Below, piece after piece: positions 1-49,782 of a DNA stretch of 64,000 nucleotides (its first letter is position 1; the number at the start of each line of letters is the position of its first letter). Under the pieces are notes generated by a model. That model searched no databases. It saw nothing but the letters and a program-made list of their open reading frames with translations, and was not told where the DNA came from. Both the position numbers and the translations under genes were made by a program. This stretch comes from Patescibacteria group bacterium (GTDB taxonomy: Bacteria > Patescibacteriota > Minisyncoccia > Moranbacterales > UBA2206), in NCBI GenBank assembly GCA_022711335.1, contig JAKLFF010000004.1:10592-74591 (forward strand), in the 5' to 3' direction.

Positions 1-578
1 CTGAAACAGAAAAATTCGCCCATGTCACTTACTTTTTTAACGGCGGAAATGAAGAGCCTTTTCCCAAGGAAGATCGAATAATAATCCCCTCCAAGGCCGT
101 TTCTGTTTTCACTGAAGCACCAGAAATGAGCGCCAACGAAATTACTGACAAGGTTTGCGAGGTTATCTCCCTCAATAAATATGATTTTATCTTGATAAAT
201 TATGCCAACGCCGATATTGTCGGACATACAGGAGATGAAAAAGCCGCTGTCGAAGCAGTTGAAACCATTGACCGATGCTTGGAAAAGCTTATACCCGCTG
301 TCATATCCAATGGCGGATGCCTCCTTATAACCGCTGACCACGGAAACGCCGAAGAGCTGGTTAATCCGCGGAACGGAGAAACTGATACGGAACACAGCAT
401 AAATCCCGTTCCGCTTTGGTTTGTTACATCCTCAAACCATTGCGACGAATCTGGAAAATGTTATACAATGAAAGTCGCAGGGCTTCTTTCCGATATCTCA
501 CCGACGATCCTCGACCTTATGGAAATTAAAAAGCCCAAAGATATGACCGGCGAAAGCCTGTTGTCGATGCTGAAATAA
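1..578 (+). CDS. gpmI: 2,3-bisphosphoglycerate-independent phosphoglycerate mutase, C-terminal part (5' end outside window)
   Basis: The frame opens at position 3 and reads ...HVTYFFNGGNEEPF... then ...ADHGNAEEL...; the track ORF 126..578 starts at an internal Met of this frame. Confidence 0.85.
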   Translation, partial: ETEKFAHVTYFFNGGNEEPFPKEDRIIIPSKAVSVFTEAPEMSANEITDKVCEVISLNKYDFILINYANADIVGHTGDEKAAVEAVETIDRCLEKLIPAVISNGGCLLITADHGNAEELVNPRNGETDTEHSINPVPLWFVTSSNHCDESGKCYTMKVAGLLSDISPTILDLMEIKKPKDMTGESLLSMLK

Positions 579-698
579 AAAACAAGAAACAAAAAAGAGT
601 CTAAGATTCCAGAAGCTTCAGAAATCCTAGACTCTAAGTGTTACTTGCGGACGACAGCAAAACGCCTTTGTCTGTTTTATCGCCTTATATAAATTTTT

Positions 699-2342
699 TT
701 ACTTGCTTTTCATCACCCAAAAAACATATTTTCCGTTGTCATAGGTATATTTTTGCTGGGAAAGATCCGGGCAACGGATTTTATATTGATCGCGGAGCCA
801 TTGGTCCGATTCCAAAAAGACCACCTGCGTTCCATCGCAGTTGATGCTGTCTTTTCCTTCCAGCGGCCTCACAAATTCATAGTCTTTTATTTTCGGCCAG
901 GCTATATATTCGGTAGTTTTCATGCTGGATTCTTTTTTAGTATCTTTTATCCAAGTATTGTAAGCTACAGTGATGTAATTATTTTTTCCAACAGGCAGTT
1001 CCTTTACGAGCATTCCGAAATCGTAGAGTTTTCGTTCATAAGCTCCGAGAACGCTCAAATTTTTCGGCCATTCAAAAAAATAAGTATAAACCTGGGTAAC
1101 TCCCCCAATTATCATAAAAAATAAAAGACTTGCGAAAATAACCAGGAAATTATTGCTGCTTGGGAATTTTCCTCCGGTTTTTTTTGATTCTCCATAATGC
1201 CCAATAATATATTCCAGCGGCAAGACAGAAAGAACAAAAACTCCCGGAATCGCTCCGATAATGCGGAGAGAGTGAGGAATGCCCTCGATGCTTAAAAATC
1301 CCGGGACAAGCATCAGCCAAAAAATGCTTTGTCCCAGAACGGATATATGAAACCAAGGCGAAGCTGCAAAATCCGGGTTAATTTTTCTTTTATATTTTAT
1401 AAATTTAGAAAGGGTTTTCGCTATTTCCCCGAGACTTATGACAGATCCGATAAAAAACAAAACCGCCCAAGCCGCCGGAAGAAGCGGCTGGTTATTATAG
1501 TTATGCCGGGGATTTTTGTCTCCAAAAACAAAAAAAGCGCTAAGGTGGCTAACTACGCTTTTCCCCAAAGCTTCTCCGACGCCCATACCTTTCGGAGCGT
1601 TGAAAATAGACACAGCTTCCGAACGCGAAATAAAATCCTTGAAATGGCCGGAGTAATATAAAATTATCGGCAAAGATACTAAAACAACGCCCAGAATAGA
1701 AAAGGCCAGATATTTTTTATAATTTTTCCAGAGCTTTTCTTTTCCCAAAAGAAAAGATGCCGCGACTAAGGCAAAAACCAAAGGAGCAATTCGAAAAGAA
1801 ATATAAGTATGAAACCCCAGCCCCAAAAAAATTCCAGCCAGGAGAATCCAAATCGCTTTCTTTTTCGGATTATTTACCGCCTTCCAAAAAAAATAAAACA
1901 TCCAGACCAAAATAAGCGGGACCATAATCGCCCGGTAAGCCGTCCGGGAAAAAACAAGATGCCAAAAAGAAAAAGCCAGCATAAAAGTTCCAGCCAAAAC
2001 AGAAAGAGATGAAAACTTAAATTCCCGAAGGAGAAAATAAAAACCTAAAAGAGTAAGCGACCCCCAAAGAGCATTGGCAAACCGGAGGCCGAAATTTGTA
2101 TTTCCGAATATTTTTATGAAAAAAGCAATAACGTTTATATGCAGCCCTTCCCGCCCATAATTTTCAGGATAAAAAAAACGGAAATTTCCGCTTTCTAAAG
2201 ATTTTAGCGCGTCTATTCCGTTAAAAGCTTCATCATAATGGACTCCCGGAGGAATAACATCCAGATGCCAAAAACGGATGAAAATGCCGCCAGCCAAAAC
2301 CAAAATACTCAAAAAAACAAAAATATTCTTTCTTATTTTCAT
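699..2342 (-). CDS. Polytopic membrane glycosyltransferase, GT39/GT83 ArnT-PMT-like
   Basis: 547 aa with many TM helices; HYDEAFNG motif near the N-terminus is typical of ArnT/PMT-family transferases. Confidence 0.6.
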   Translation of the reverse strand: MKIRKNIFVFLSILVLAGGIFIRFWHLDVIPPGVHYDEAFNGIDALKSLESGNFRFFYPENYGREGLHINVIAFFIKIFGNTNFGLRFANALWGSLTLLGFYFLLREFKFSSLSVLAGTFMLAFSFWHLVFSRTAYRAIMVPLILVWMFYFFWKAVNNPKKKAIWILLAGIFLGLGFHTYISFRIAPLVFALVAASFLLGKEKLWKNYKKYLAFSILGVVLVSLPIILYYSGHFKDFISRSEAVSIFNAPKGMGVGEALGKSVVSHLSAFFVFGDKNPRHNYNNQPLLPAAWAVLFFIGSVISLGEIAKTLSKFIKYKRKINPDFAASPWFHISVLGQSIFWLMLVPGFLSIEGIPHSLRIIGAIPGVFVLSVLPLEYIIGHYGESKKTGGKFPSSNNFLVIFASLLFFMIIGGVTQVYTYFFEWPKNLSVLGAYERKLYDFGMLVKELPVGKNNYITVAYNTWIKDTKKESSMKTTEYIAWPKIKDYEFVRPLEGKDSINCDGTQVVFLESDQWLRDQYKIRCPDLSQQKYTYDNGKYVFWVMKSK

Positions 2343-4365: not shown

Positions 4366-6357
4366 TTACAATAACATCCCAACTATCAACAAAGCTACGA
4401 TATTCAGAATTTTTATCATCGGATTAATCGCCGGTCCGGCTGTGTCTTTGTAAGGATCGCCGACTGTATCTCCGGTCACCGCCGCCTGATGAGCGAAGCT
4501 TCCTTTTCCTCCATATTCTCCATTTTCAATATATTTTTTGGCGTTGTCCCAGGCTCCGCCTCCGCTTGTCATGGAAACCGCTACAAAAATTCCAGTGATA
4601 ATCGATCCAACCAAAAGCCCTCCAAGAGCATGCACGCCCAGAATGAATCCGACCAAGATCGGTACAACAACCGGAATAAGCGCTGGCACAATCATTTCGC
4701 TAATAGCCGCCTTAGTTACAATATCGACTGTTCTTCCGTAATCTGGGTTTTCCGTTCCCGCCATAATCCCGGGCTTTTCTTTAAACTGATTGCGCACTTC
4801 TTCTACGACTGACCCAGCTGCTCTTCCTACCGCCTGCATAGAAAGCGCTCCAAAATAATACGGTAGAAGGCCGCCAATGAAAAGTCCGGCAAGAACTTTT
4901 GGATCGTTGATTAAAAATTGAAACGATCCGGGTATGCTATAGGTAAAGTCAGAAAATAGAACTAGCGCCGCAAGGGCTGCGCTGCCAATTGCATAGCCCT
5001 TCGTTACTGCTTTTGTCGTATTTCCAACCGCATCCAGCGGATCAGTAATATTCCTAACATCTTCTCCCATTTCCGCCATTTCAGCAATTCCTCCCGCATT
5101 GTCTGTAATCGGACCATAAGAATCAATTGCCACAATTATTCCCGCCATGGAAAGCATGGCCATTGCCGCAATTGAAACCCCATAAATTCCGGCTAGTTCA
5201 TAAGCGCCTAGAGTTGCCGCAACAATAACAATAACCGGCCAGGCAGTCGATTTCATGGAAACTGCCAATCCTGCGATAACGTTAGTGCCGTGTCCCGTCT
5301 GGGATGCTTTGGCAATATCTTTCACCGGCTGATATTTAGTCGAGGTGTAATATTCAGTGATAATTACCATCGCCGCTGTCACTGCGAGCCCGATAAGGGA
5401 AGCCAGGTATAAATTCAGCGTTTCATATTTTCCATTGCCAAACATAAGATAATCAGTCGCCGGATAAAAAGCAATCGCCGCTAAAACTCCTGAAACAATA
5501 AGGCCCTTATAAAGCGCGCCCATTATGTTTGGGTTTTTATCCTCTCCTAATTTTACAAAGAAAGTTCCAACTATTGAAGTTATGATTGAAATCGCGCCAA
5601 GAACCAAAGGAAAAATAATAGCATTCGGAAAAGTCTTGAAAAGCAAAGACCCTAGAATCATTGTTGCAATCGAAGTTACCGCGTAAGTTTCAAAAAGATC
5701 AGCGGCCATTCCGGCGCAATCTCCGACATTATCCCCAACATTGTCCGCAATCACAGCTGGATTTCTTGGATCATCTTCCGGAATTCCCGCTTCCACTTTT
5801 CCAACCAAATCCGCTCCCACATCGGCCGCTTTCGTGAAAATTCCTCCTCCAAGCCGCGCGAAAATTGAAATCAAAGATCCGCCGAATCCAAAACCAATAA
5901 GCGCATGAATATCTTTGGTAACAAAATAAAATCCAGCCGTTCCGAGAAGTCCAAGTCCGACAACCAAAAGTCCAGTTACGCTGCCGCCTTGAAAAGCCAC
6001 CGTAAGAGCCTTTTGCATTCCAGATCGCGCCGCTTCCGCTGTTCGCACATTCGCCCGCACAGAAACATTCATGCCGATATAGCCAGTCAAAGCTGAAAGA
6101 AACGCTCCGATAATAAAAGCAACGGCTGTCATCCATCCCAGAGACGGAATGAATCCGATAACAATAAACAATACAGCCGCCACCATCGCTACTGTCTTAT
6201 ACTGGCGGTTAAGATAGGCTTTCGCCCCTTCCTGGATAGCTTTCGCAATCGATTGCATTTTTTCATTTCCAGAAGGCAGTTTTATCACTTTTTCAATTAG
6301 AATGATGCCATAGATTATGGCCAGTGCTGCTCCCCCTAGCACAAATAGAGTCACCAT
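4366..6357 (-). CDS. hppA: Membrane-bound H+/Na+-translocating pyrophosphatase
   Basis: 663 aa polytopic protein with the PPase motifs [19 protein letters not shown] and DNVGDNVGD. Confidence 0.9.
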
Positions 6358-37334: not shown

Positions 37335-37569
37335 AAATATTTTCTAAATTGTTTCCATCTTTTTCCCAGTTAATTGGATTTTTAAAAATATATTCGCGAA
37401 TTTTATTCAATTCAATTTCATTTCGAATGATACGATCATAAAAAGACCGTTGCCAAATATTTGTAATACAGGAAATATTTTTTGATTTCATTAATTGAAT
37501 ATATTCTACGGCTGATTTGGATTTAAACGTTTGGATTATTTTTGATAATAATCCAATTTGATTAGAATT

Positions 37570-37651
37570 TTGTAGGGACAGACCTTATGTCTGTCCTGAA
37601 TTTTTTATTTGTATTTTTTTATTTTGGGCGGACACAAGGTCCGCCCCTACA
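37570..37651. repeat. REPIN/BIME-like 82-bp element, copy L (TIR TTGTAGGG/CCCTACAA, two 8-bp-stem hairpins)
   Basis: GGACAGAC-CTTAT-GTCTGTCC and GGGCGGAC-ACAAG-GTCCGCCC. Confidence 0.6.
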
Positions 37652-37905
37652 TTTCCGATAATCTCTATGATCAAATGAACATGGTTTGGCATTATTATGT
37701 TTTCATCTAAAAATACACTTGGAGAATAATTTGAAACATTATTTAAATTTTTTAAAATAATCTTTCCCACATCATTCAAAACCATTTCTGTATTTTTAAT
37801 TTCACCAAAAAATTCTTCACGATTTTTTGTACAGATGGTAATAAAATACATTCCTTGCTGTGAATAATCATAACTATTGAGGCGATTTAATTTACGGTTT
37901 TTCAT
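37585..37905 (-). pseudogene. Truncated REP-associated tyrosine transposase (RAYT / IS200-like TnpA), N-terminal half only
   Basis: YDYSQQGMYFITICTKNREEFFGEI...MPNHVHLIIEI, then the reading frame runs into the REPIN copy; the catalytic C-terminal Tyr region is missing. Confidence 0.6.
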
Positions 37906-37916
37906 TGGAAATATGG

Positions 37917-38663
37917 CTATTTTACCCTTACCTCCGGCAGATTATCCCAAGCTAACTCAAACATCCACTTTAAAGTATTATTAATCTCCGCGCTTTCAAT
38001 GATCACTGCCATTTGTTCTTTGGAAGAAATAAGCGCGACTTTTTGATGGCCGTACACATCCACTTCCACTGAAAAAGGATATTTATCTTTTTTAATTAGT
38101 TTACAGACTCGCAATTGTTGCTGGTCTCTCGCCACTAATGATTCTTCCAAATATTTTGTTCCCGGAAGAATCGCCCGCACGCGCACGCCCTTCTTCATTC
38201 TTTTTTTGATATACCATTCGATCCAATCTTCACCCAAAACATCTCGGACATCTTCCGAACCAAATGCCAAAATTTCACCGGAATATTTCAGCGCATCGTC
38301 ATATGCTTCCATGAGTCCTTCCTTACCTTCATAAAATCTAATCTTCGGTTTTGTGCCTTTGACGTTGTAGATGGATTTCAACTGCGGAAGGATTTCTTCA
38401 AAAAGGCTTTCTTTTTTTTCAAGGTCTTTTTTTATTTTCTCCGGATCTTCGCCGATGAATAATCTTTTCTTTCCACTAAGCGCCTGAGACACAAGGCCGT
38501 CTTTTTGCAGATCAAGAAGAATGTCATAGGCGGTGGTTCTTTTGATGTTGGCCTTCCGGGATATGTCTATTACCGACGCCCCGCCCAATTCCAAAGCCGC
38601 CAGATATACATCTGCTTTTCGGCCATGGAGGCCAAATTGTTTGAGAATTTGTCGGGTTTCCAT
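37917..38663 (-). CDS. TrmB-family HTH transcriptional regulator (copy 1)
   Basis: N-terminal HTH ...DVYLAALELGGASVIDISRKANIKRTTAYDILLDLQKDGLV... plus a TrmB-like C-terminal domain. Confidence 0.65.
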   Translation of the reverse strand: METRQILKQFGLHGRKADVYLAALELGGASVIDISRKANIKRTTAYDILLDLQKDGLVSQALSGKKRLFIGEDPEKIKKDLEKKESLFEEILPQLKSIYNVKGTKPKIRFYEGKEGLMEAYDDALKYSGEILAFGSEDVRDVLGEDWIEWYIKKRMKKGVRVRAILPGTKYLEESLVARDQQQLRVCKLIKKDKYPFSVEVDVYGHQKVALISSKEQMAVIIESAEINNTLKWMFELAWDNLPEVRVK

Positions 38664-38682
38664 GATAATTATTTTGCAATCT

Positions 38683-38764
38683 TTGTAGGGACAGACCTTG
38701 TGTCTGTCCTGAATTTTTTATTTGTATTTTTTTATTTCGGGCGAACACAAGGTTCGCCCCTACA
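38683..38764. repeat. REPIN/BIME-like 82-bp element, copy R (about 93% identical to copy L, same orientation)
   Basis: Same TIRs and hairpins as copy L. Confidence 0.6.
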
Positions 38765-38884
38765 TTTTGCCCTTATTTTACCATATGACGACATTTTTCG
38801 TCAAATAATAAGATTTTTAATTATCTTTATTTGCCTTTATTTAGCCATTTTATATAATATATTGCAATTTACTTGACGTAGTTC

Positions 38885-38913
38885 TTTGACATTTTTGTCA
38901 TTTGGCTGTATAA
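38885..38913 (+). promoter_or_regulatory. Consensus promoter of the REC-domain gene
   Basis: TTGACA, 17-bp spacer, TATAAT; RBS AAAGGAG. Confidence 0.55.
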
Positions 38914-38992
38914 TTGGCAGTTAAGATGAAAGTTCCAATGAGGAACTGGAATCTTAATAAAAGTTCATTACATTCCAAAAAAGGAGCAAGCT

Positions 38993-39745
38993 ATGAAAAT
39001 AATGATTATTGACGATACCAATGCAAATCTGGAAGCAGCTCGTACGGCTTCGGCTAATTTTTCTGAGCACGAGTTTTCCTTTTTCAGTTCAGCAAAAGAA
39101 GCAGCTGATAAATTGGAAGATTTCGATGCCATAATCTCTGACCTCTTCTTTCCTAATGAGAATCATCATGACGGAAGCAATTTGGATGATTTATATGCAA
39201 TTTATCGTTCGGAAATGGATCATCCTGTCTTCAATGAGATCGTTGATTATTATTATGGTGGCGACTGGAAAAGAGCAAATGGCAAACTCCAGGATGCCGT
39301 AGCATTGCTGGAAGAGGGAACTATTAGAAAAGCTATTGAGAGATTAATCCGTTTCTTCTATGGAAAAGGAGATGCTTGGGGATTAGAAAAAGCAAAGGAA
39401 TATGAAGAAAGATTAGAAAGCCTCCCTGACCAACAATTTCCATACGGAGGCGCCTTGATTTTGGAGGCAAAAAAGGTTGGAAAAGCTTGCTGCCTAGTGT
39501 CGGATATTCATCGCCATGCCGGAGAATATAAAGATGCAGTAGGAGCCATTGATGCCATGACTCTGCTCATACCTCTTATGGGTGCTGGCATCGTTACGAT
39601 TGAACAAGCGCAATATGATGGAAAAAATAGTTTGACATACATAGGCAATGATGAGCTGTATAAGACTGCGGGCAGTCAGAAAAAGAATTCTCCGAAAGTA
39701 TGGGTAGAAGCAATTAAAAGAGTTCTTTCTCAAATTGACCACTAA
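38993..39745 (+). CDS. Orphan REC (CheY-like receiver) domain protein with an uncharacterised C-terminal domain (copy 1)
   Basis: MKIMIIDD...DAIISDLFFPNE... receiver fold; the C-terminal domain is shared with the 46473..47156 product. Confidence 0.55.
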   Translation: MKIMIIDDTNANLEAARTASANFSEHEFSFFSSAKEAADKLEDFDAIISDLFFPNENHHDGSNLDDLYAIYRSEMDHPVFNEIVDYYYGGDWKRANGKLQDAVALLEEGTIRKAIERLIRFFYGKGDAWGLEKAKEYEERLESLPDQQFPYGGALILEAKKVGKACCLVSDIHRHAGEYKDAVGAIDAMTLLIPLMGAGIVTIEQAQYDGKNSLTYIGNDELYKTAGSQKKNSPKVWVEAIKRVLSQIDH

Positions 39746-39886
39746 AGGTTTCCGGGAAGTTTATCCTTGCTTATCAAGGCAAAAAACTTCCCAATTTTAT
39801 TGAGTTTTTCTTGAATAGGTCAAGGAAGATTCATTGAATGAAGGTTCTTTGAAATTACTCACATTACAAATTATAAAGGAGCAATT

Positions 39887-40141
39887 ATGTGGTATGAAAT
39901 TCATTTTTTTAGGTATGAGTTTGAGTATGCGGAACCTGTACTGTCAGAAGTTCTTTTTTTTAAATCAAGAAAGGAGTTAGAAAAATATCTCGATGGAATG
40001 ATTTCTGGCAATATGGTTTTTGGAGTGGATACTCTCAGTTTCTATGCAGGCACAATTTACCAATTGTGCAGAAATGGAGTAAAAAGAAAAATTGAAAAAT
40101 TCCGTAACAATGTTTACAAAAAATATCCAGATTGGTACTAA
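39887..40141 (+). CDS. Hypothetical protein (84 aa)
   Basis: Strong RBS AAAGGAG; no motif recognised. Confidence 0.4.
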   Translation: MWYEIHFFRYEFEYAEPVLSEVLFFKSRKELEKYLDGMISGNMVFGVDTLSFYAGTIYQLCRNGVKRKIEKFRNNVYKKYPDWY

Positions 40142-40210
40142 CTTTAAAGACTTGAGCTACGTCTATAAACTGGCTCTTTTTATTTGTAAATCGGCTTTTT
40201 TATTTTTTAT

Positions 40211-40242
40211 ATAAACAAAAAAGACGCCCCATTGGAGCGTCT
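40211..40242 (-). terminator. Intrinsic terminator downstream of gyrA
   Basis: On the minus strand, AGACGC-TCCAATGGG-GCGTCT hairpin followed by a T6 run. Confidence 0.65.
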
Positions 40243-40264
40243 CTACAAAATATCTTTTGACTGG

Positions 40265-40284
40265 ATTCCCGCTTTCGCGGGAAT
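40265..40284 (-). promoter_or_regulatory. Isolated hairpin A of the two-hairpin motif (perfect ATTCCCGC-GAAA-GCGGGAAT), 13 nt after the gyrA stop
   Basis: The minus strand reads TTTGTCATTCCCGCGAAAGCGGGAATCCAG. Confidence 0.45.
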
Positions 40285-40297
40285 GACAAAATAAATT

Positions 40298-42742
40298 TTA
40301 CAATACCGTAATCGCGCTGACTTTGTCACCAGCCTGTGGCCTCATAACTCTTACGCCTTGTGTCGCCCGGCCGAGAACGGAAACTTCTTTGAGAGAAATG
40401 CGGATAATCTGGCCTTTTTCAGATGTAAGGATTACGTCTTCTTCAATCTGATCCAAATTAACCACTTGCGCGCCGATCAGTTTTCCGGTTTTGGCAGTAA
40501 CCGATGCCGTCTTTATCCCGCTGCCTCCCCGATTTTGAACTTTGTATGATTTCAGATCAGATCTTTTTCCATATCCGTTTTCCGAAATCACCAAAAGTTG
40601 ATTGCCTTTCTGATTTTTGAGGACCACATCCATTCCAACTACCTTATCTTCGCTTTTTAGCTTGATTCCACGCACTCCAGCCGCGGCGCGTCCCATTGGA
40701 CGGACATCTGATTCTTTGAAATGAATAGCTTGTCCGGCGGCAGTCGTCACAACCACTTCATCCGATCCGGTTGTCGCCTCCACCCAGCGGAGCGCATCGC
40801 CCTTTTCCAGTTTGATCGCAAGCAATCCAGAACGCCTGACATTATCAAATTCATCGAAGGTGGTTTTCTTGACTGTCCCAGTTTCTGTCACCATGAGAAG
40901 ATATTTATAATTATCATCTTTTCCAAAAGCAACGATCGCCGTTACGGATTCTTCCGAAGAAAGGGAAAGGAAATTAACAATTGATTGTCCTTTGGCCACT
41001 CGGGAAGATTCCGGAATTTCATAAGCCTTGGTTTGGAAAACTTTTCCGGAGTTCGTAAAGAAGAGCATATTGTCATGTGTCATTACGCCAAGAAGTTTTT
41101 GAATTTCATCACCTTCTTTGGTTGTCGCACCGATCACGCCCTTTCCGCCACGCTTCTGGACTTTGTAAACTCCCGGGTTCATTCTTTTTATGTAGCCTTC
41201 TTTAGTGATAGTTATGATAGCTTCCTCATTCGGAACCAAGTCTTCCTGCTTGAATTCTCCGATTCCGCCTTTCACCACTTTGGTTTTTCGCTCATCGCCA
41301 TATTTTTCTTTGACTCGAGCCAATTCATCTTTCACAATTGCCAGAATTTTCTTTTCTGATTTCAAAATGGCTTCCAATTCCGCAATCAGCTTCAGTTTTT
41401 CGGCCAATTCGTCTTCAATCTTCTTTCGTTCCAATCCTGCAAGTGTCTGCAGCCGCATTTCGAGAATTGCCGTTGATTGTCGATCGGAAAGCTTGAATTT
41501 TTTCATCAAATTCGCATGCGCTTCTTCTTTTGTCGGAGATTTCCGGATTGCATCAATCACGGCATCGATATTATCGAGTGCTTTTTTAAGGCCTTCCAAT
41601 ATATGCGCCCGGTCTTTGGCTTTTTCCAAATCATATTTAGTCCGCCTGGTGATAACAATTTTTCGGTGTTCGATATATTCTTCCAAAATATCCTTGAGAT
41701 TGAGCACTCTCGGCTCGATTCCATTGACCAGCGCCAGCATATTCACCCCGAAGTTCTTCTGAAGATCCGTCATAGAATAAAGCTTGTTGAGAACTTTTTG
41801 CGGATAGGCGTCTTTTTTAAGATCAATGACAATCCGCACTCCTTCCTTGTCAGACTCATCTCGGATATCTCGGATCCCCACAATTTTTCCATCTCGAACC
41901 AAATCGGCCATTTTCTCAATAAGCGTCGCTTTATTGGTTGCATAAGTCATTTCGCTGACCACAATTTGAAAAGCACCGGCTTTGCTTTCCACTATATCAA
42001 CTTTGGCACGAGTAAGAATCTTTCCACGACCGGTTCGATATGCTTCCAAAACATCTTTTTTATTGTAAATTATCCCGCCCGTCGGAAAATCTGGACCTTT
42101 GACAAATTCTGCCAGATCTTCAATGGTAGCTTCTGGGTTATCAATAAGACATGAAATTCCATCGGCAATTTCATTCAAATTATGCGGAGGAATGTTCGTT
42201 GCCATTCCAACCGCAATTCCCATTGAACCATTGAGAAGCAGCTGAGGAAGCGCTGCCGGAAGAACAGTCGGTTCTTTGTGCTGTCCGTCAAAATTAGGGA
42301 CAAAATCAACCGTGTTTTTTTCAATGTCAATAAGCATTTCCTCGGCAATGGCAGAAAGTTTGGCTTCCGTATAACGATAAGCGGCCGCCGAGTCACCGTC
42401 CATCGAGCCGAAATTTCCCTGGCCGCGAACAAGAGGATAGCGAAGAGAAAAATCCTGGGCCATGCGCACCATAGAATCATAAACAGCGCTGTCTCCGTGC
42501 GGATGAAACTTTCCCAGCACTTCTCCGACTACTGTAGCTGATTTTCTGAATTTTGCGTTAGCCCGAAGACCGGTGTTCCACATGGAATAGAGGATTCTTC
42601 TGTGAACTGGCTTAAGGCCATCCCTGACATCCGGAAGAGCGCGCGCGACAATGACACTCATCGCATAATCAAGATAGCTTTGCGATATTTCTTCGGTAAT
42701 TTCGCGATTCTTTATATTTTGTACTTGTAGTTCTTTAGTCAT
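40298..42742 (-). CDS. gyrA: DNA gyrase subunit A
   Basis: ...[23 protein letters not shown]..., 814 aa. Confidence 0.9.
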
Positions 42743-42744
42743 AC

Positions 42745-42864
42745 AATTAAAATTTTCAATTCACAATTTTCAATTTTCAATCAATTTACAATTTCATAAT
42801 TTTCAATGACTAAAACATTTAATCATTGGAAATTGTTTAGAAATTAGAAATTGAAAATTAGAAA
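42745..42864. repeat. AT-rich imperfect palindrome of about 115 bp made of short units (TTCAATTT / GAAATTG)
   Basis: Left arm TTCAATTTTCAATT; right arm GAAATTGAAAATTAGAAATT. Confidence 0.5.
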
Positions 42865-43140
42865 TTAATTTTGATTTTGCAAATTCCCTTGCCCCTGAAA
42901 ACCGCTTTTCATTTGGCCGGTTACGTCTTCAAGCGATTTTTTTTGATCCTTAAACTGCTCCAGAATTTGGGGATTCGGAGTTATCTCAGAAGCCGTATTT
43001 TTCTTATTTTGCGCCACAATTGACACTATCCAGATAGCAACAACAAAAACCATTGAAATAGAGACCCACATCCAAACATAGCGAATGCGGATATACTCCG
43101 GCTTTTGGCGAATTTCATCAATTTTGTCTTGCAATCCCAT
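42865..43140 (-). CDS. Hypothetical small membrane protein
   Basis: 91 aa with one TM helix. Confidence 0.4.
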   Translation of the reverse strand: MGLQDKIDEIRQKPEYIRIRYVWMWVSISMVFVVAIWIVSIVAQNKKNTASEITPNPQILEQFKDQKKSLEDVTGQMKSGFQGQGNLQNQN

Positions 43141-43225
43141 TGTTTTACGAAATACGAAATGAGCGAAATATGAAGCATTCTATTTATTATTTCGTAGTTC
43201 GTTAATTTCGTATTTCGTAAAGTCT
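43141..43225. repeat. AT-rich palindrome of about 85 bp (TTACGAAATACGAAAT ... ATTTCGTATTTCGTAA)
   Basis: Near-perfect inverted repeat. Confidence 0.55.
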
Positions 43226-43883
43226 ATTCTATCCCCATCAGCACCACTTCCATACTTTTTTCATCGATGTCTTTCTTTTTTATATTAAGCTTGGAAAATT
43301 TTGTTCTGGGACAATTTCCCATTTCATTGCAAAATTTCTTTTCATCGTCAACGTCTATATTAGACCCGTTTATCTTGTAGTGCATTGGGATTATAATTTT
43401 CGGCTCGATCTTTTTTATAATATCCACCGCCTTTTTGCCATCAATAGTATATTTTCCGCCAATCGGAATCATGAGAATATCCACGCCATTTATATCTTCC
43501 AGCTGCTTTTCTGTGAGGTCGCATCCCAGATCTCCCATATGGCAAACCCGCATATCTTCACTTTCAAAAACGAAAATAGTATTGAGGCCTTGTTCCGCAC
43601 CTTGTTTATTATCATGAAATGAAGTAATTCCGACAATATTTATGCCCTTAACTGAATATTCCCCGGGAATATTAACAATATACGGTTCGCCTTTTATGGC
43701 TTCGATATTGTTGTGATCATGATGATCATGCGTAGAAAGCACCAGATCAGCGCTGCCCTGGGGCGGGCGAAGGCCGATGGATTTGTCAAAGGGATCAATA
43801 AAAAGCGCCACATCCTGCTGGCCTCTTCCTTCAGGCTTTGTGGTTATTTTAAAGCAGGAATGGCCGTAATATTGGATATTCAT
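43224..43883 (-). CDS. MBL-fold metallo-hydrolase
   Basis: STHDHHDHN motif. Confidence 0.7.
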   Translation of the reverse strand: MNIQYYGHSCFKITTKPEGRGQQDVALFIDPFDKSIGLRPPQGSADLVLSTHDHHDHNNIEAIKGEPYIVNIPGEYSVKGINIVGITSFHDNKQGAEQGLNTIFVFESEDMRVCHMGDLGCDLTEKQLEDINGVDILMIPIGGKYTIDGKKAVDIIKKIEPKIIIPMHYKINGSNIDVDDEKKFCNEMGNCPRTKFSKLNIKKKDIDEKSMEVVLMGIE

Positions 43884-44140
43884 ATAAGAAGATGTGATTT
43901 ATTACTAACTTATCCTATCATAAAAAAATATGTGTGTCGAGATTCGTCCGAATTGACTAATAGGCTTTTTTGCTCTAGTTTTAATGCAGATTAAAAATTT
44001 CCAGGGAGAAGGAGGCTTTGGATTTTAAAATGGTTCATTAATAACTGAGTAATTCGAAAAATTTTCGGTTTTCATATACATGAAACAATGGTGGTAATTA
44101 TCAAAAAACATAAGTTTTCCCAAAAATAAGGAGACTAGAC

Positions 44141-44845
44141 ATGGACAGCAAAAAAAAGAACTTCATTCGTTCAATTTTTAAGTATGGTAGAATTGAAATT
44201 CGTGATGTGGATGGTGGCCAGGAGCCGTTTCTTTACAGCACAAAGAATCACGGTCCCGGCTATGTCGATGTGAAAGGGGGAGTTGGTATTGATGAGTTTT
44301 TTGAACCAGCTCTTGATCTTCTTGCCGACATAATCGTGCAAGATCAAATTCCTATTGACATTGTAATTGGCATGATGACCGGCGGAGCCCTTCCTGGTTA
44401 TCGTCTCAAACAACATCTTCAAGAGCGCCTTAATAAGAGAATTGTGTATATCTACCAGCGTGGCGCACGAAAAGAAGGCGGGCACGCCGAACTCGACACA
44501 GGTGATCGTAATAACTGCCATATACAGGAAGGCTGTTACGGGCTTGTAGTCGAAGAGCTGGTAAATTTTGCAGGAACAACCACTAACGGCGTTCTCTATG
44601 AGCGCAATGTTAAGAAAAGAATCGTTGATCACGCGGCCACAATTCTTTTCTACAAAAACCCCGTGGCAATCGAACGGCTTAAAGAAAACAGCATCACTCT
44701 CCATTGGGTTGTTGCGCTTCCGGAAGTTTTGGATCTTGGTTTTCAAGAAGGCTATATTAACCAAAAACAATTCGATCAATATACAGCCTTCCTCCAAAAT
44801 CCAAAAACATGGAATGAAAGTCGCGGATACGAATTCTTCGGATAA
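44141..44845 (+). CDS. Type I phosphoribosyltransferase, orotate-PRTase-like
   Basis: PRPP-binding-like GLVVEELVNFAGTTTNG; N-terminal orotate-PRTase-like segment. Confidence 0.5.
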   Translation: MDSKKKNFIRSIFKYGRIEIRDVDGGQEPFLYSTKNHGPGYVDVKGGVGIDEFFEPALDLLADIIVQDQIPIDIVIGMMTGGALPGYRLKQHLQERLNKRIVYIYQRGARKEGGHAELDTGDRNNCHIQEGCYGLVVEELVNFAGTTTNGVLYERNVKKRIVDHAATILFYKNPVAIERLKENSITLHWVVALPEVLDLGFQEGYINQKQFDQYTAFLQNPKTWNESRGYEFFG

Positions 44846-44856
44846 GGAGACATGTC

Positions 44857-45561
44857 ATGTATAAGCGCGCATTTCCAAAATTTTGTCTTGCCATTGACGA
44901 CAGTTCGGCCGAAAAAGTCGTTTATAAGGCAAATCAGATCAAGGGTGTTCCCGGGAATTACGGAATCAAAGTTAATCTGGATGCCATCGTGGATAGCAAA
45001 AGAGTTATTAGTGATATTTGTGTGATAACCGGCAAACCCGTTTTTACTGATTTTAAGGGCTGGAATGGGAATCGGACACTTAAAGAGCTTGTTACTATCG
45101 CGGCGGGCGAAGGCGCATCTATGATCAATTTTCACGCCTTAGCTGATAGCATGCTCGAAAAAGCAGTCGAAGAAGGGGAAAAGCTAGGCGTTATCGTTCT
45201 TGGAGTTACAATCCTTACCCATTACGACGATGCCTATTGCCGGCGCCATTTTCGACGATCTCTTTCTGAGTCAGTACGCCATTTCGCCAAGGTTTCTCTT
45301 GAAAGAGGCTGCGATGGATATGTGATGCCCGGAACTATGCTTGATGCAGTGAAAGGTTTGCGAGGCATTAAATTTATTCCAGGAACAAGGCCGTCGTCTT
45401 TCGAAGATAAATCAGCAAATTTTCAGAAACAATTCGAGGATCCACTTATTTGCTTAGCTAACGGCGCCACAATTGTTTCGTGCGGATCTCCAGTATGGAA
45501 ATCCGATGATCCTTGTAAAGCACTCCATGTGCTTGTCCGTCAAGTGAACAACATCGATTAA
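44857..45561 (+). CDS. OMP-decarboxylase-superfamily (PyrF-like) protein
   Basis: LAIDD..., ...VIVLGVTILTHYDD..., ...IPGTRP... Confidence 0.5.
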   Translation: MYKRAFPKFCLAIDDSSAEKVVYKANQIKGVPGNYGIKVNLDAIVDSKRVISDICVITGKPVFTDFKGWNGNRTLKELVTIAAGEGASMINFHALADSMLEKAVEEGEKLGVIVLGVTILTHYDDAYCRRHFRRSLSESVRHFAKVSLERGCDGYVMPGTMLDAVKGLRGIKFIPGTRPSSFEDKSANFQKQFEDPLICLANGATIVSCGSPVWKSDDPCKALHVLVRQVNNID

Positions 45562-45565
45562 CTTA

Positions 45566-45630
45566 CAACCCAACCCCGCGATTTAGCAGATAATTCTGCA
45601 AAAGTCGCGCGGGTTGTTTTTATTTTTCTT
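45566..45630 (+). terminator. Hairpin with a T-run after the pyrF-like gene
   Basis: AACCCCGCG...CGCGCGGGTTG followed by TTTTTATTTTTC. Confidence 0.45.
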
Positions 45631-45727
45631 TACGAAACATAAATCTAATACTAGTATATTAATGTATGAGTAATCATATGTTTTATTAAGTATATAAAAG
45701 AATATTTTTATATAAAAAAGCTCTGAT

Positions 45728-45875
45728 GGACCCAGTAGTAGAATTTCGACTTTTAATATGCTGAGTCCGACAAACATAATTTGATTGTAATAGAATTATT
45801 AATATTTAATAAATTAACTAAGTCTCTTTTGATTTTTCCGTAGGAAAAATCAGTCGAAATTTCACTACTGGGTGG
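45728..45875. repeat. Inverted-repeat-bounded element of about 150 bp
   Basis: Left end GGACCCAGTAGTAGAATTTCGAC, right end GTCGAAATTTCACTACTGGGTGG; internal 9-bp-stem hairpin GATTTTTCC-GTA-GGAAAAATC; the GTG start of the next gene lies inside the right repeat. Confidence 0.5.
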
Positions 45876-46438
45876 ATATTCTCGCTCATGGCCTTTGGGC
45901 CGGATCAGCCGGAAAGGCTGTTAATTTAATCCGCCAGCCGGCGGAAAAAGAGCCGCTAAAACTCAAATGGATGGTTGTTTGGGGAATTTTTCCGGATTTT
46001 TTTGCCTTTGCCATTTCTTTTTCCTGGATGATCGGGAGCCAGATTTTTCCGTTTATTCCTAAAATCGAGCACTTGGGTCCTGGCAATATGGAGCCGGTTA
46101 CTCAAAACAGCCTTTTCATAATGCATCTTACCCATACTTTATATAATATCAGCCATAGCCTGTTTATATTTTTCCTTATTTTTGGATTAGCCTGGCTGAT
46201 TTTTAAAAAGCCTGTCTGGGTTATGACTGGCTGGCTACTGCATATTCTCATGGATATCCCTTCCCATTCCTATGATTTCTATCCCACGCCTTTTCTTTGG
46301 CCGATATCTGATTTCAAAATAAACGGCTTCCATTGGGGCACCCCGTGGTTTATGATAACTAATTATTCTTTGATAATAATTGCATATCTTCTTCTATATA
46401 TTATTAATAAGAGGAATAAAAAAAGAGCCAGTTTATAG
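45872..46438 (+). CDS. YdjM/DUF457-like membrane-bound metal-dependent hydrolase
   Basis: MDILAHGLWAG... N-terminus, multi-TM, conserved H and D residues. Confidence 0.5.
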   Translation: MDILAHGLWAGSAGKAVNLIRQPAEKEPLKLKWMVVWGIFPDFFAFAISFSWMIGSQIFPFIPKIEHLGPGNMEPVTQNSLFIMHLTHTLYNISHSLFIFFLIFGLAWLIFKKPVWVMTGWLLHILMDIPSHSYDFYPTPFLWPISDFKINGFHWGTPWFMITNYSLIIIAYLLLYIINKRNKKRASL

Positions 46439-46472
46439 ACTTGGCTCAGGTCTTTGTGGTTAGAGCGCTACA

Positions 46473-47156
46473 TTAAGCGGCGCTCCCTTTCGTCACCTCC
46501 TTTCTCATTTCTTCCCAAAAGATTCTGTGTTCTTTTGGGTTTTCGAGCTCCTCGCCAGAGGAGTTCTTGTGGCCGTAGTCAAAAATATCCGACCACTTTT
46601 TTGAGCTGACAAACTGATTAATTGCTTCCAGCTTGTCGTTGTGATGGAACAGGGACGAGGCCATTCTGAATTTCAGGCCTCTTTTTTCGCATTCCTCAGC
46701 CACTAATATTCCCAATGGCTGATCTGCTTCGTCTTGGCTTGAGAGCCACGAGTCAACCGCCCCTGCAATTCTTTCGGCCTTTTCGACACAATAAGTTATG
46801 TGTCGAATTTCGTTTTTGACGTACTTTAATTTATACGTCAATTTTTTCTCATCTTCGATGAACTCCTTGTTGAAGAGAGCTTCCTCCAGCGTTTCGAAGA
46901 AATTCTCAATTCCTTTCTCCTTTACGAAATTTTTAAGCCTTTCCGCCAGCTCCCCAGCCATCTCTTTCTTCCCCGTTCCAGTTTCCTGGGGGAAGAAGAT
47001 GTCTGTGATCACCAGGTCATATTGACCCTGGCTAAGTTTTTCCATTGCAGTGGCATAGTCACCAGTGATTTCGATCTGGTTTTCAGTCCCAAAAACTTCA
47101 GAGATTAAGGATTGAGCAATAGCGTTATCTTCGACAAACAGGATGGATTTTTTCAT
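46473..47156 (-). CDS. Orphan REC (CheY-like receiver) domain protein with an uncharacterised C-terminal domain (copy 2)
   Basis: MKKSILFVEDN...DLVITDIFFPQE...; C-terminal domain paralogous to the 38993..39745 product. Confidence 0.55.
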   Translation of the reverse strand: MKKSILFVEDNAIAQSLISEVFGTENQIEITGDYATAMEKLSQGQYDLVITDIFFPQETGTGKKEMAGELAERLKNFVKEKGIENFFETLEEALFNKEFIEDEKKLTYKLKYVKNEIRHITYCVEKAERIAGAVDSWLSSQDEADQPLGILVAEECEKRGLKFRMASSLFHHNDKLEAINQFVSSKKWSDIFDYGHKNSSGEELENPKEHRIFWEEMRKEVTKGSAA

Positions 47157-47348
47157 GGCAATTCCTTTCTTATAGAGGTGATTTTTAAAAAACTTATTAA
47201 GCGTCCAACCGGACTATCCAATTTTCAGCTTAACGGTCTATTATACATCAAAAATGGGAATTAGTCAATTAATTTAGTTATTATTATTGTATTATATTGC
47301 TTTATTTATGACATTTTTTAGAATATATACTTTTTGTTGTTAATTTTA

Positions 47349-47377
47349 TTGACAATTTGCTATATAGCTGATATACT
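47349..47377 (+). promoter_or_regulatory. Promoter of TrmB copy 2
   Basis: TTGACA, 17-bp spacer, TATACT. Confidence 0.5.
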
Positions 47378-47400
47378 AAAAATACCCTTAAAAAGCATTT

Positions 47401-48204
47401 ATGAACCAAAATCACATTCAAGCCATCCAGAATCTAGGTTTAAACGAAAAAGAAGCCATTGTTTATTTGGCTCTTTTGGAAACCGGGAAAGCTTCAGCCA
47501 ATAGCCTTTCTTTGAAAAGCGGCTTAAAAAGGCCAACAACCTATGTAATTCTGGAACAACTGATGAAAAAAGGCTTTGCTTTCAAAATTCCCCGAGCCAG
47601 AAAGCACGCTTTCCAAGCAGTCGAGATAGAAAAATGCGCCCTTTTGGCCAAAGAAAGATTGAATTATAGCTTGGAAATACTTCCGGAAATAAAAGCTATC
47701 CAAAAAGGCAAGGAAGAAAAAACCAGTATTTTCCACTTTGAAGGAACTGAGGGACTGAAAGAAGCGTATGATCGAATATTGAAAAATAAAAAAGATATTG
47801 AGTGTGCGGCTTTTTTCGCTCACCAGCGTAATGTCCCCGATGAAGTTAAAAATTATTGGGAAAAAATAGATAAATTATACGCGAAAAATAATATTAAAAG
47901 AAAAATTATCATTCCCGATGATTCTTCGGTTCGGGATTATATTGGCTCAGTAATCGGAAAACGAGATGACATCGCACTTAAAAAATTGCCGCTTGAACAA
48001 TTTGACAGCGATGTAGCTATTGAAATTTATGACAATATAACTCTCTTTGTTTCCCACAAACACATGCAGGCTTCAATGGTTGAGGACGCGGACATTGCCA
48101 AAACCATCACGCAAATTTTCAATCTAGTTTGGAAATCAGCAGAAGACAATGTAAAAAATCCTGATGAAAGCAACATGCTGTCTACGAATTTGACAAAGTT
48201 CTAA
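47401..48204 (+). CDS. TrmB-family HTH transcriptional regulator (copy 2)
   Basis: ...EKEAIVYLALLETGKASANSLSLKSGLKRPTTYVILEQLMKKGF... Confidence 0.65.
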   Translation: MNQNHIQAIQNLGLNEKEAIVYLALLETGKASANSLSLKSGLKRPTTYVILEQLMKKGFAFKIPRARKHAFQAVEIEKCALLAKERLNYSLEILPEIKAIQKGKEEKTSIFHFEGTEGLKEAYDRILKNKKDIECAAFFAHQRNVPDEVKNYWEKIDKLYAKNNIKRKIIIPDDSSVRDYIGSVIGKRDDIALKKLPLEQFDSDVAIEIYDNITLFVSHKHMQASMVEDADIAKTITQIFNLVWKSAEDNVKNPDESNMLSTNLTKF

Positions 48205-48375
48205 AAATCAAATACACTGATAAACACAATAATTATTAGGAAAATTGAATATCCGCCCGAGGCGGACAAGCGGGATGCTTTAATTCCGTTCTAATCATTA
48301 ATTTTCTTGATAATTTCCCTTACGCGGAAATTTTTTTGTTTTCATAATAATTAATTTTCATTATTATTTAACGCT

Positions 48376-49782
48376 ATGGACAACATTTTAGACCAATTAG
48401 CCAAAGAAGTGGACAAAATATCTGAAGAAGATATTTCAAAAGACGAAAAAACCAAACAAACTGAAAAAACTGAGAAAAAACCTGCCAAAAATGAAGCGGA
48501 TGATTCTCCTATGGGAAAACTGATGAGCAAAAAAACAGTTGCTTTCCCATGCGTTGGAGATGTTATAGAAGGAAGAGTAATTGACATCACTTCATCAGAA
48601 ATGTACCTGGATCTGGCACCTTTTGGAACCGGAATCGTTTTAGGAAAAGAAATTAAGGACGGCATGGGATCAGGAAAAGCAAAAATCGGAGACAAGGTTA
48701 CCGCCACTATCATGGACATGGAAGATGAAAACGGATATATCGAACTTTCTATCCGCGAAGCTTCACACGAAAAAGCCTGGGAAGATATTGAATCCAAGCG
48801 CGACACCCAGGAAAAAATCACTACCAAAATTATCAGCGCCAACAAAGGCGGTCTGCTTATTGAAGTCAACGGCATATCCGGATTTCTGCCTGTTTCCCAG
48901 CTTTCCAGCAAAAACTATCCGAGAGTGGAAGATGGGGATAAAAACAAGATATTAAGTATCCTAAAAAAAATGGTCGGACATGAACTGGAAGTTCGAATTT
49001 TAGACGCCGACAAAGAAACCCAAAAATTAATCGTCAGCGAAAAAGCCGCCCAGAGCGAAAAAGACAAGGAAATTATTTCCAACCTCCATGTCGGCGATAC
49101 AGTTTCCGGCGAAGTCAGCGGGGTAGTGGATTTTGGAGCATTCATAAAATTTTCAGCCAAAGAATCAGGAGAAAATGCCCAGGAAGAGGAAAAAATGGAA
49201 GGACTGGTCCATATTTCAGAACTAGCCTGGCAGCTTATCGAAGACCCGAGAACCATTATCAAGGTAGGCGACAGAGTACAGGCTAAAATAATTGGAATTG
49301 ATGCAGACAAGATTTCCCTTTCTATCCGAGCCCTTCAAAAAGATCCTTGGAGCGAAGTCAACAAAAAATACAATATCGGAGACGTGGTTTCCGGAACGGT
49401 CAATAAAATCAATCACTTTGGAGCCTTCGTTTATCTCGACAAAGACATTCATGGCCTGGCGCACATCAGTGAAATGTCCGAAATGTATCCTGGGAAAAAT
49501 ATCGATGAACTCATAAAAACTGGTGAGAAATATGATTGGAAAATTCTATCTATTGAGCCGAGAGAGCATAGAATGGGACTGGTATTGACTGATAAAAAAT
49601 CTAGATCCGCCTCCGAAGGAAAGGCTAAAAAAGAAAAGGAGCCTGCCAAAAAAACTGTTAAGGCTGAAAAGGATGGGAAGGAAGTTAAAAAAGAAAAGAA
49701 AGCAAAGGAAATAAAAGCAGACAAAAAGGAGAAAAAAGAAGCTCCCAAGAAAAAAACAGCTAAAAAAGAAACTAAAAACTAA
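48376..49782 (+). CDS. rpsA: 30S ribosomal protein S1 with K/E-rich N- and C-terminal extensions
   Basis: Four S1-domain repeats. Confidence 0.8.
   Translation: MDNILDQLAKEVDKISEEDISKDEKTKQTEKTEKKPAKNEADDSPMGKLMSKKTVAFPCVGDVIEGRVIDITSSEMYLDLAPFGTGIVLGKEIKDGMGSGKAKIGDKVTATIMDMEDENGYIELSIREASHEKAWEDIESKRDTQEKITTKIISANKGGLLIEVNGISGFLPVSQLSSKNYPRVEDGDKNKILSILKKMVGHELEVRILDADKETQKLIVSEKAAQSEKDKEIISNLHVGDTVSGEVSGVVDFGAFIKFSAKESGENAQEEEKMEGLVHISELAWQLIEDPRTIIKVGDRVQAKIIGIDADKISLSIRALQKDPWSEVNKKYNIGDVVSGTVNKINHFGAFVYLDKDIHGLAHISEMSEMYPGKNIDELIKTGEKYDWKILSIEPREHRMGLVLTDKKSRSASEGKAKKEKEPAKKTVKAEKDGKEVKKEKKAKEIKADKKEKKEAPKKKTAKKETKN

Follow-up and report, generated by a model that had tools for sequence, protein, structure and literature searches.

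In the archaeal two-component census of Galperin et al. (2018), thaumarchaeal REC-only genes are found divergent from ArsR winged helix-turn-helix (wHTH) genes, with a putative interaction between the products, and FilR1 is described as a fused wHTH-DUF1724-REC regulator (PMC5847659). TrmBL2 consists of a wHTH, a dimerisation helix plus a C-terminal domain as in TrmB, without the sugar-binding subdomain (PMC4877046), and functions in Thermococcales as a chromatin protein and global repressor (PMC3031468). Signal transduction in Candidate Phyla Radiation (CPR)/Patescibacteria is poorly understood. The present analysis concerns a stretch of 64,000 nucleotides from a Patescibacteria contig (JAKLFF010000004.1, positions 10,592 to 74,591; hereafter the window), which carries two divergent gene modules, each composed of a receiver gene (REC1 or REC2) and a gene for a TrmBL2-type regulator (trmB1 or trmB2). 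Both modules represent a known type of signalling module in an uncurated variant form; a new output domain is not joined to the receiver. Stand-alone receivers and receiver/wHTH gene pairs are already known; the novelty lies in an insertion-bearing receiver subfamily and in its coupling to a TrmBL2-type regulator.

The first module comprises trmB1 (37917..38663, minus strand, 248 aa) and REC1 (38993..39745, plus strand, 250 aa), and the second REC2 (46473..47156, minus strand, 227 aa) and trmB2 (47401..48204, plus strand, 267 aa). All four open reading frames (ORFs) lie where an earlier note on this DNA had placed them, on the same strands, and the back-to-back architecture that it described is borne out, with intergenic regions of 329 bp (trmB1/REC1) and 244 bp (REC2/trmB2). 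There are exactly two TrmB-like ORFs in the window, as well as exactly two genes of the receiver family, with a receiver next to each TrmB. The same note had called the modules paralogous gene pairs; this holds for TrmB1 and TrmB2, which share 31% identity over 243 aa (E=5e-26), while the receivers are akin chiefly through their N-terminal part. Public-database proteins identical to those of the window carry the label Candidatus Moranbacteria.

AlphaFold models of both receiver proteins, obtained with merged alignments, are confident (REC1, predicted local distance difference test score, pLDDT, 91.5 and predicted template modelling score, pTM, 0.87; REC2, 89.9 and 0.85). They open with beta1-alpha1-beta2-alpha2-beta3, pass through a helical block and then continue as helix-beta4-helix-beta5-helix, the (beta-alpha)5 doubly wound fold of CheY-like receivers (PF00072). 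Because the predicted fold resumes after the helical block, REC1 and REC2 are each modelled as a single receiver domain into which a helical module is inserted, rather than as a receiver plus an output domain. In REC1, residues 1-57 (38993..39163, plus strand) form the N-terminal half of the receiver, residues ~58-148 (39164..39436) a five-helix insertion with its helices within residues 63-142, and residues 149-250 the C-terminal half. In REC2, the insertion is a two-helix hairpin (residues ~60-145, 46722..46979, minus strand; helices 65-101 and 106-139). The module of ~85-90 aa thus follows beta3, beside the phospho-acceptor Asp (D50 in REC1, D52 in REC2), and it is the least conserved part of the family, its length ranging between ~18 and ~90 aa and its sequences being unrelated. 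A relative encoded at locus L029 has only ~18 residues at this site (ITDIHFPEQ...PCGVAVVAEAVGKGVPVVVCSDINHH), and this natural short form identifies the P-x-G-helix-strand-S/T-x-x-H-H block as alpha3-beta4. Lying beside the phosphorylation site and differing between the paralogs, the inserted helices could plausibly form a specificity or output surface. Foldseek searches of the PDB returned response regulators alone, matched over the N-terminal half (best E=3.8e-3), the insertion not being bridgeable by Foldseek.

Sequence comparison of the two receivers yields a more restricted signal. Protein identity is just 18%, REC1 and REC2 each have their own small set of close homologs, and BLASTP aligns one common stretch of 14 residues, D-x-I-I-x-D-x-F-F-P. 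Profile-profile comparison of the homolog sets is significant over the full length (94.7% probability, E=6e-8, 158 columns), and the source of this signal is the N-terminal ~57 residues, which alone reach 97.1% and E=7.5e-11. Across the middle ~90 residues the two proteins are unrelated (profile-profile probability 2%). The last ~100 residues are in register over a 28-residue P-x-G...S-x-x-H-x-H block; taken alone they are not significant in hhalign (E=0.03; 0.008 when a broader profile is used), and a C-terminal-only hidden Markov model (HMM) run in hmmsearch scores no higher than 4,000 shuffled decoys. A shared C-terminal domain is therefore not established by sequence statistics. Of the similarity proposed beyond the receiver N-terminus, the register across this block survives and independent significance does not; the shared, unrecognisable domain of ~130 aa proposed in the earlier note, for which it had suggested HMM and structure-prediction searches, corresponds in the AlphaFold models to the insertion plus the second half of the receiver fold.

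The catalytic signature of receivers is conserved across the family. When 50 diverse members are aligned, the five canonical positions (REC1 numbering) are retained as D/E7 (49/50), D8 (46/50), D50 (47/50), S/T170 (49/50) and K231 (50/50). The acidic pair is DD7-8 in REC1 and ED9-10 in REC2, and the phospho-acceptor Asp closes beta3. In the models, the beta4-end Ser is S170, right after strand 165-169, in REC1 and S167, after strand 163-166, in REC2, and the invariant Lys (K231 and K208, respectively) lies 3 residues before the last helix. A family profile matches solved receivers (E=6e-6) with its Asp aligned to the phospho-acceptor of the RpfC and AHK5 receivers, in accordance with the earlier reading of the D(I/L)FFP segment as surrounding the phospho-Asp. 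The family also has conserved residues of its own, F52, F53, G152, H173, H175 and W237, all but G152 counted as kept in 38-50 of the 50 members. Standard domain models capture little of this: the Pfam Response_reg profile matches REC2 below threshold (25.9 bits, gathering score 30.2) over residues 5-61 only, does not match REC1, and matches 8 of the 50 relatives at E<=0.01. No Pfam, NCBIfam or PADLOC family covers the whole receiver protein, and the defence-system and NCBIfam libraries yield weak receiver-like N-terminal matches only. Among these, the N-terminus of the PADLOC candidate-defence model PDC-M60C weakly matches REC1 residues 1-62 and REC2 residues 23-60 (E ~4-6e-4), which probably reflects just a receiver-like N-terminus in that model.

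The TrmB partners are more readily classified. Both exceed the gathering score of Pfam TrmB (PF01978, 25.6 bits), at 39.8 bits for TrmB1 and 54.7 bits for TrmB2, and of the REC-adjacent TrmB homologs 10 of 10 match the family. A profile of these ten proteins aligns with the TrmBL2 structures 5BOX/5BPD/5BQT over its full length (positions 9-246, E=1.3e-9), including the dimerisation helix and C-terminal domain common to TrmB and TrmBL2, and with the sugar-sensing TrmB 3QPH over positions 4-135 only. The extra sugar-binding subdomain of TrmB/TrmBL1, which are proteins of ~340 aa, is absent from TrmB1 and TrmB2, and both score far under the cutoffs of the NCBIfam TrmB/TrmBL1 equivalogs. Since the match is of the TrmBL2 type and the sugar-binding subdomain is lacking, the partners are, judged by sequence, DNA-binding proteins without a recognised sensor of their own.

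Genomic neighborhood analysis supports the association of the two genes. Among 31 fetched loci encoding relatives, scored with local HMMs, there are 21 non-redundant cases in which 700 nt or more of sequence precede the receiver gene, the window's two modules included. A TrmB-like gene is directly adjacent and divergent in 11 of these 21 (the two window modules, L001, L004, L006, L012, L013, L018, L020, L027 and L030); L023 keeps the divergent arrangement with one gene in between, in L011 and L014 a TrmB-like gene lies no more than 3.5 kb from the receiver, and the remaining 7 (L002, L008, L009, L026, L028, L029 and L031) have no TrmB. The intervening gene of L023 (724-1437, minus strand) encodes 222 aa beginning MYIFIDESGNF, a start that may resemble DUF3800. 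The flanking genes vary (O-antigen ligase/gyrA, YdjM/S1, infB/secreted proteins, a DedA-like protein), and the pairing persists down to 28% receiver identity (L030); the receiver and TrmB pair therefore behaves as a unit. Co-localisation in related genomes, on which the earlier note had staked its claim, is thus observed. Its wider proposal of an undescribed signalling unit fares in two ways: the idea of a cassette is supported by the conserved pairing, but the domain architecture had been misread.

Strong sigma70-like promoters are predicted in both divergent intergenic regions, as had been claimed. The REC1 promoter is a perfect TTGACA-17-TATAAT (12/12; 38886..38914, plus strand), followed by those of REC2 (TTGACT-17-TATAAT, 11/12; 47240..47268, minus strand) and trmB2 (TTGACA-17-TATACT with a TG, 11/12; 47349..47377, plus strand); these are the top three matches in 37500..48400, that of REC1 being the best. 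The predicted trmB1 promoter is TTGACG-18-TAAAAT with a TG extension (10/12; 38775..38804, minus strand), and the L001 ortholog carries an equivalent, TTGACG...CATAAT. A palindrome read from the sequence, TGACGA-N6-TCGTCA (38786..38803), overlaps the trmB1 -35 box, is kept in L001 as TGACGAcgatttCCGTCA and is a candidate autoregulatory operator.

The receiver genes share a further element at the predicted start of transcription. Both leaders open with GTTAAG-N-CTTAATAA 6-7 nt past the -10 box, and the pattern GTTAAG-N20-40-CTTAATAA occurs twice in the window, in the two receiver leaders, against 0.02 occurrences expected. In REC1, it forms a 5'-terminal two-tier hairpin (38920..38960, plus strand; GTTAAGAT...ATCTTAATAA) and in REC2 a hairpin of the same two-tier shape (47194..47234, minus strand; GTTAAGC...GCTTAATAA) that is kept in L004 and L006; across the orthologs L001, L004 and L006 the GTTAAG...CTTAATAA hairpin is conserved. 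The outer stem is conserved in sequence with one compensatory change, and the inner hairpins differ but stay paired. For the REC1 leader (38920..38998) the folding energy is -20.8 kcal/mol (z=-5.05), and the L001 leader has z=-2.45; the REC2 leader as a whole does not exceed shuffles in stability (z about 0). No Rfam family corresponds to the receiver leaders, the sole matches being noise on repeats resembling repetitive extragenic palindromes (REP). The element could be an RNA element or a DNA operator, and its conservation between paralogs so distant in protein sequence suggests that a common trans-acting factor may act on both leaders.

Other features of these upstream regions are more variable. 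The higher-GC relatives L002, L011 and L014 have a different strong hairpin at the leader position. The motif AGTTCATT, at 38962-38969 in the window and also in L004, L006, L011, L012, L014 and L028, lies past the hairpin, ~30-45 nt before the receiver starts, and is replaced by AGTTCTTT in L001, L002 and L023; it is not general in the window (2 found, 3.5 expected). Upstream of trmB1, the second copy of an 86-nt direct repeat (37569-37654 and 38682-38767, 95% identical, two GC-rich hairpins per copy) sits between the predicted promoter and the start codon; the L001 ortholog lacks this copy and has an 8-nt trmB1 leader. The copies bracket trmB1 and a 106-aa ORF (37585..37905, minus strand) that weakly matches IS200/Y1 transposases, contains an HVH (HUH) motif and looks truncated, so that hairpin repeats flank a transposase-like ORF in an arrangement that looks REP/RAYT-like. 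In L001 (6532-7745), an S1-domain gene almost directly follows a metallo-beta-lactamase-fold gene, whereas the corresponding part of the window (44141-48204) holds a five-gene block (phosphoribosyltransferase-like, orotidine-monophosphate-decarboxylase-like, YdjM, REC2, trmB2) that is absent there; the REC2 module is therefore variably present among close relatives.

The receiver family is larger than word-indexed homolog searches, which under-reported it at 8-10 clusters, would indicate: an exhaustive profile search recovered 933 cluster representatives at E<=1e-3, of which 198 reach <=1e-10 and 39 reach <=1e-30. Seven members (P0057, P0058, P0067, P0075, P0080, P0063 and P0114) are variants, four with a second insertion of ~60 aa between alpha1 and beta2, two with C-terminal extensions of 170-300 aa without a Pfam match, and one with a Cys-rich N-terminal extension of ~100 aa. 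A Rosetta-stone search among longer family members found no fusion to TrmB or another known domain. A phage origin of the family was considered and rejected, as a scan of viral contigs yielded no relatives. In L002, an identical 5' coding start (MERFFIQQDNKEKIMKVII) at 2722-2780 and 5266-5320 heads the family receiver and, 2.5 kb downstream, a CheY-sized ORF of 127 aa; this suggests that a promoter/5' region was duplicated. In L029, two receiver-like genes are divergent (182-1033, minus strand; 1626-2180, plus strand), one of them being the short-insertion family member, which has a C-terminal extension of ~110 aa.

Taken together, these features are explained best if each module is a split response regulator, in which the receiver would provide signal input and the TrmBL2-like protein DNA binding; we assign this reading a probability of about 0.5. 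The receiver would be phosphorylated on its conserved Asp by an unlinked kinase or by a small-molecule phosphodonor such as acetyl phosphate. The earlier note saw no histidine kinase nearby, and a weak regular-expression screen for the H-box, with inspection by eye, likewise found none in any window ORF of at least 60 aa; none is evident among the genes called beside homologs at the fetched loci. Phosphorylation would then change the conformation of the inserted helices and the alpha4-beta5-alpha5 face, the switched receiver would bind its cognate TrmBL2-like partner, and this contact would alter how the partner binds DNA, also at the divergent promoter region that the two genes share. Several observations weigh against the assignment. 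The invariant Lys lies 12-14 residues past the beta5 aromatic, compared with 3 in CheY. When the insertion is excised in silico, the Pfam match still ends at profile position 55, so that the second half of the receiver is not demonstrable by a single-sequence HMM, and Response_reg likewise matches only the first half of the short-insertion member of L029 and of shorter relatives. The loci sampled for the pairing are, moreover, phylogenetically related.

The main rival, which is compatible with a split response regulator and may also be true, holds that the relationship is one of regulator and target only: the TrmBL2-like protein would repress or activate the divergent receiver gene and itself, and the receiver would contact unrelated protein targets, like CheY, DivK and MrrA, leaving TrmB alone. 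Divergent regulator-target pairs are the commonest bacterial arrangement, and the palindrome over the trmB1 -35 box, the possible operator at the predicted transcription start of both receivers and the 7 loci at which the receiver occurs without TrmB all fit this account. It leaves unexplained, however, what signal a sensor-less TrmBL2-type protein answers to, and a pairing that survives changing contexts and such low receiver identity is tighter than is usual for a simple local repressor; as the whole explanation it is possible, at odds clearly below even. A different proposal makes the receiver-like protein an enzyme, such as an Asp-based phosphatase or phosphotransferase with the insertion as a HAD-style cap, under TrmB-family (metabolite-linked) control, or else a phosphorylation-independent pseudo-receiver. 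The insertion does sit at the active-site rim, straight after the Asp-bearing strand, the family's own conserved residues (F52, F53, H173, H175, W237) cluster around the site, no kinase lies nearby, and REC2 weakly matches the NCBIfam Cof-type HAD-IIB hydrolase model (E=0.005, 16.5 bits, far from its 137-bit cutoff). Yet the catalytic order is that of receivers (beta1 acidic pair, beta3 Asp, beta4 Ser/Thr, Lys before alpha5) and the insertion, as the least conserved part, fits poorly with a conserved substrate-binding cap, which makes this proposal improbable; the best structural matches to the REC2 model are also receivers exclusively. Membership of the HAD phosphatase superfamily in particular was rejected: DxDxT is absent, strand 1 ends in IIDDT or VEDN, and the residue order is not that of HAD. 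The architecture first proposed, in which a CheY-like receiver at the N-terminus is joined to a separate, novel C-terminal output domain of ~130 aa common to both proteins, would explain why receiver similarity in Pfam and Foldseek is confined to the first ~55-80 residues and why both proteins carry the P-x-G...S-x-x-H-x-H motif downstream, but it is contradicted by the predicted structures and is very improbable.

If the split response regulator holds, a more far-reaching extension can be formulated, although it is distinctly speculative: the modules may exemplify a widespread, unrecognised class of split regulators in ultra-small CPR (perhaps DPANN) genomes. The lineage-variable insertion would serve as the specificity element that docks each receiver on its own TrmBL2-like partner, the receivers would read acetyl phosphate or another metabolic phosphodonor directly, without a dedicated kinase, and a further control common to both paralogs, post-transcriptional or at an operator, would come from the hairpin that their 5' leaders share. 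Minimal genomes would thereby gain phosphorylation-gated transcriptional or nucleoid control. Independently of this extension, a sizeable uncurated receiver subfamily is half-detected by standard domain models, which leads to automated labels of "hypothetical" or to misreading as a receiver plus an unknown domain. The modules offer a specific, testable case in which a stand-alone receiver and a sensor-less TrmBL2-type regulator are genetically linked, bear on the question of whether archaeal REC-only proteins control neighbouring wHTH regulators by direct contact, and, with the insertion beside the phosphorylation site, provide a case of elaboration of the receiver output surface.

A literature search found no published description of this receiver family or of its TrmB pairing, and the modules are best placed by comparison with known systems. 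With the CheY-type stand-alone regulators (CheY, Spo0F, DivK, MrrA, VemR), REC1 and REC2 share a single (beta-alpha)5 fold without a separate output domain, the conserved acidic pair, phospho-Asp, Ser/Thr and Lys, and a presumed output through protein-protein contacts. Unlike these, they have a helical module of ~85-90 aa inserted behind beta3, with five helices in REC1 and a two-helix hairpin in REC2, 12-14 extra residues that separate the beta5 aromatic from the conserved Lys, and motifs specific to the family, D-x-F-F-P-x-E, P-x-G, S/T-x-x-H-x-H and K-x5-W; they are also longer (227-250 aa compared with about 120) and are under the Pfam Response_reg threshold or undetected. TrmBL2 of Pyrococcus furiosus and Thermococcus kodakarensis (TK0471) resembles the partners in its wHTH, dimerisation helix, C-terminal domain and length of about 260 aa, but it serves archaea as an abundant chromatin protein and a global repressor and is not known to have a receiver partner (PMC3031468, PMC4877046), whereas the trmB genes of the window are bacterial, occur in duplicate and are each linked to a receiver gene, and identity is low. 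By analogy only, PhyR-NepR-sigmaEcfG likewise has a phosphorylated receiver that steers transcription by binding another protein rather than DNA; PhyR, however, has a fused sigma-like domain and acts by an anti-sigma route, and has no sequence or architectural kinship with the REC/TrmB modules. FilR1 combines receiver and wHTH parts as found here, but in one chain. The thaumarchaeal REC-only/ArsR pairs have the same layout, a stand-alone receiver gene divergent from a winged-helix gene, and cooperation of the two products is proposed in both cases; the modules described here differ in that the wHTH protein is of the TrmB/TrmBL2 type, the hosts are bacteria of the CPR and the receiver carries an insertion.

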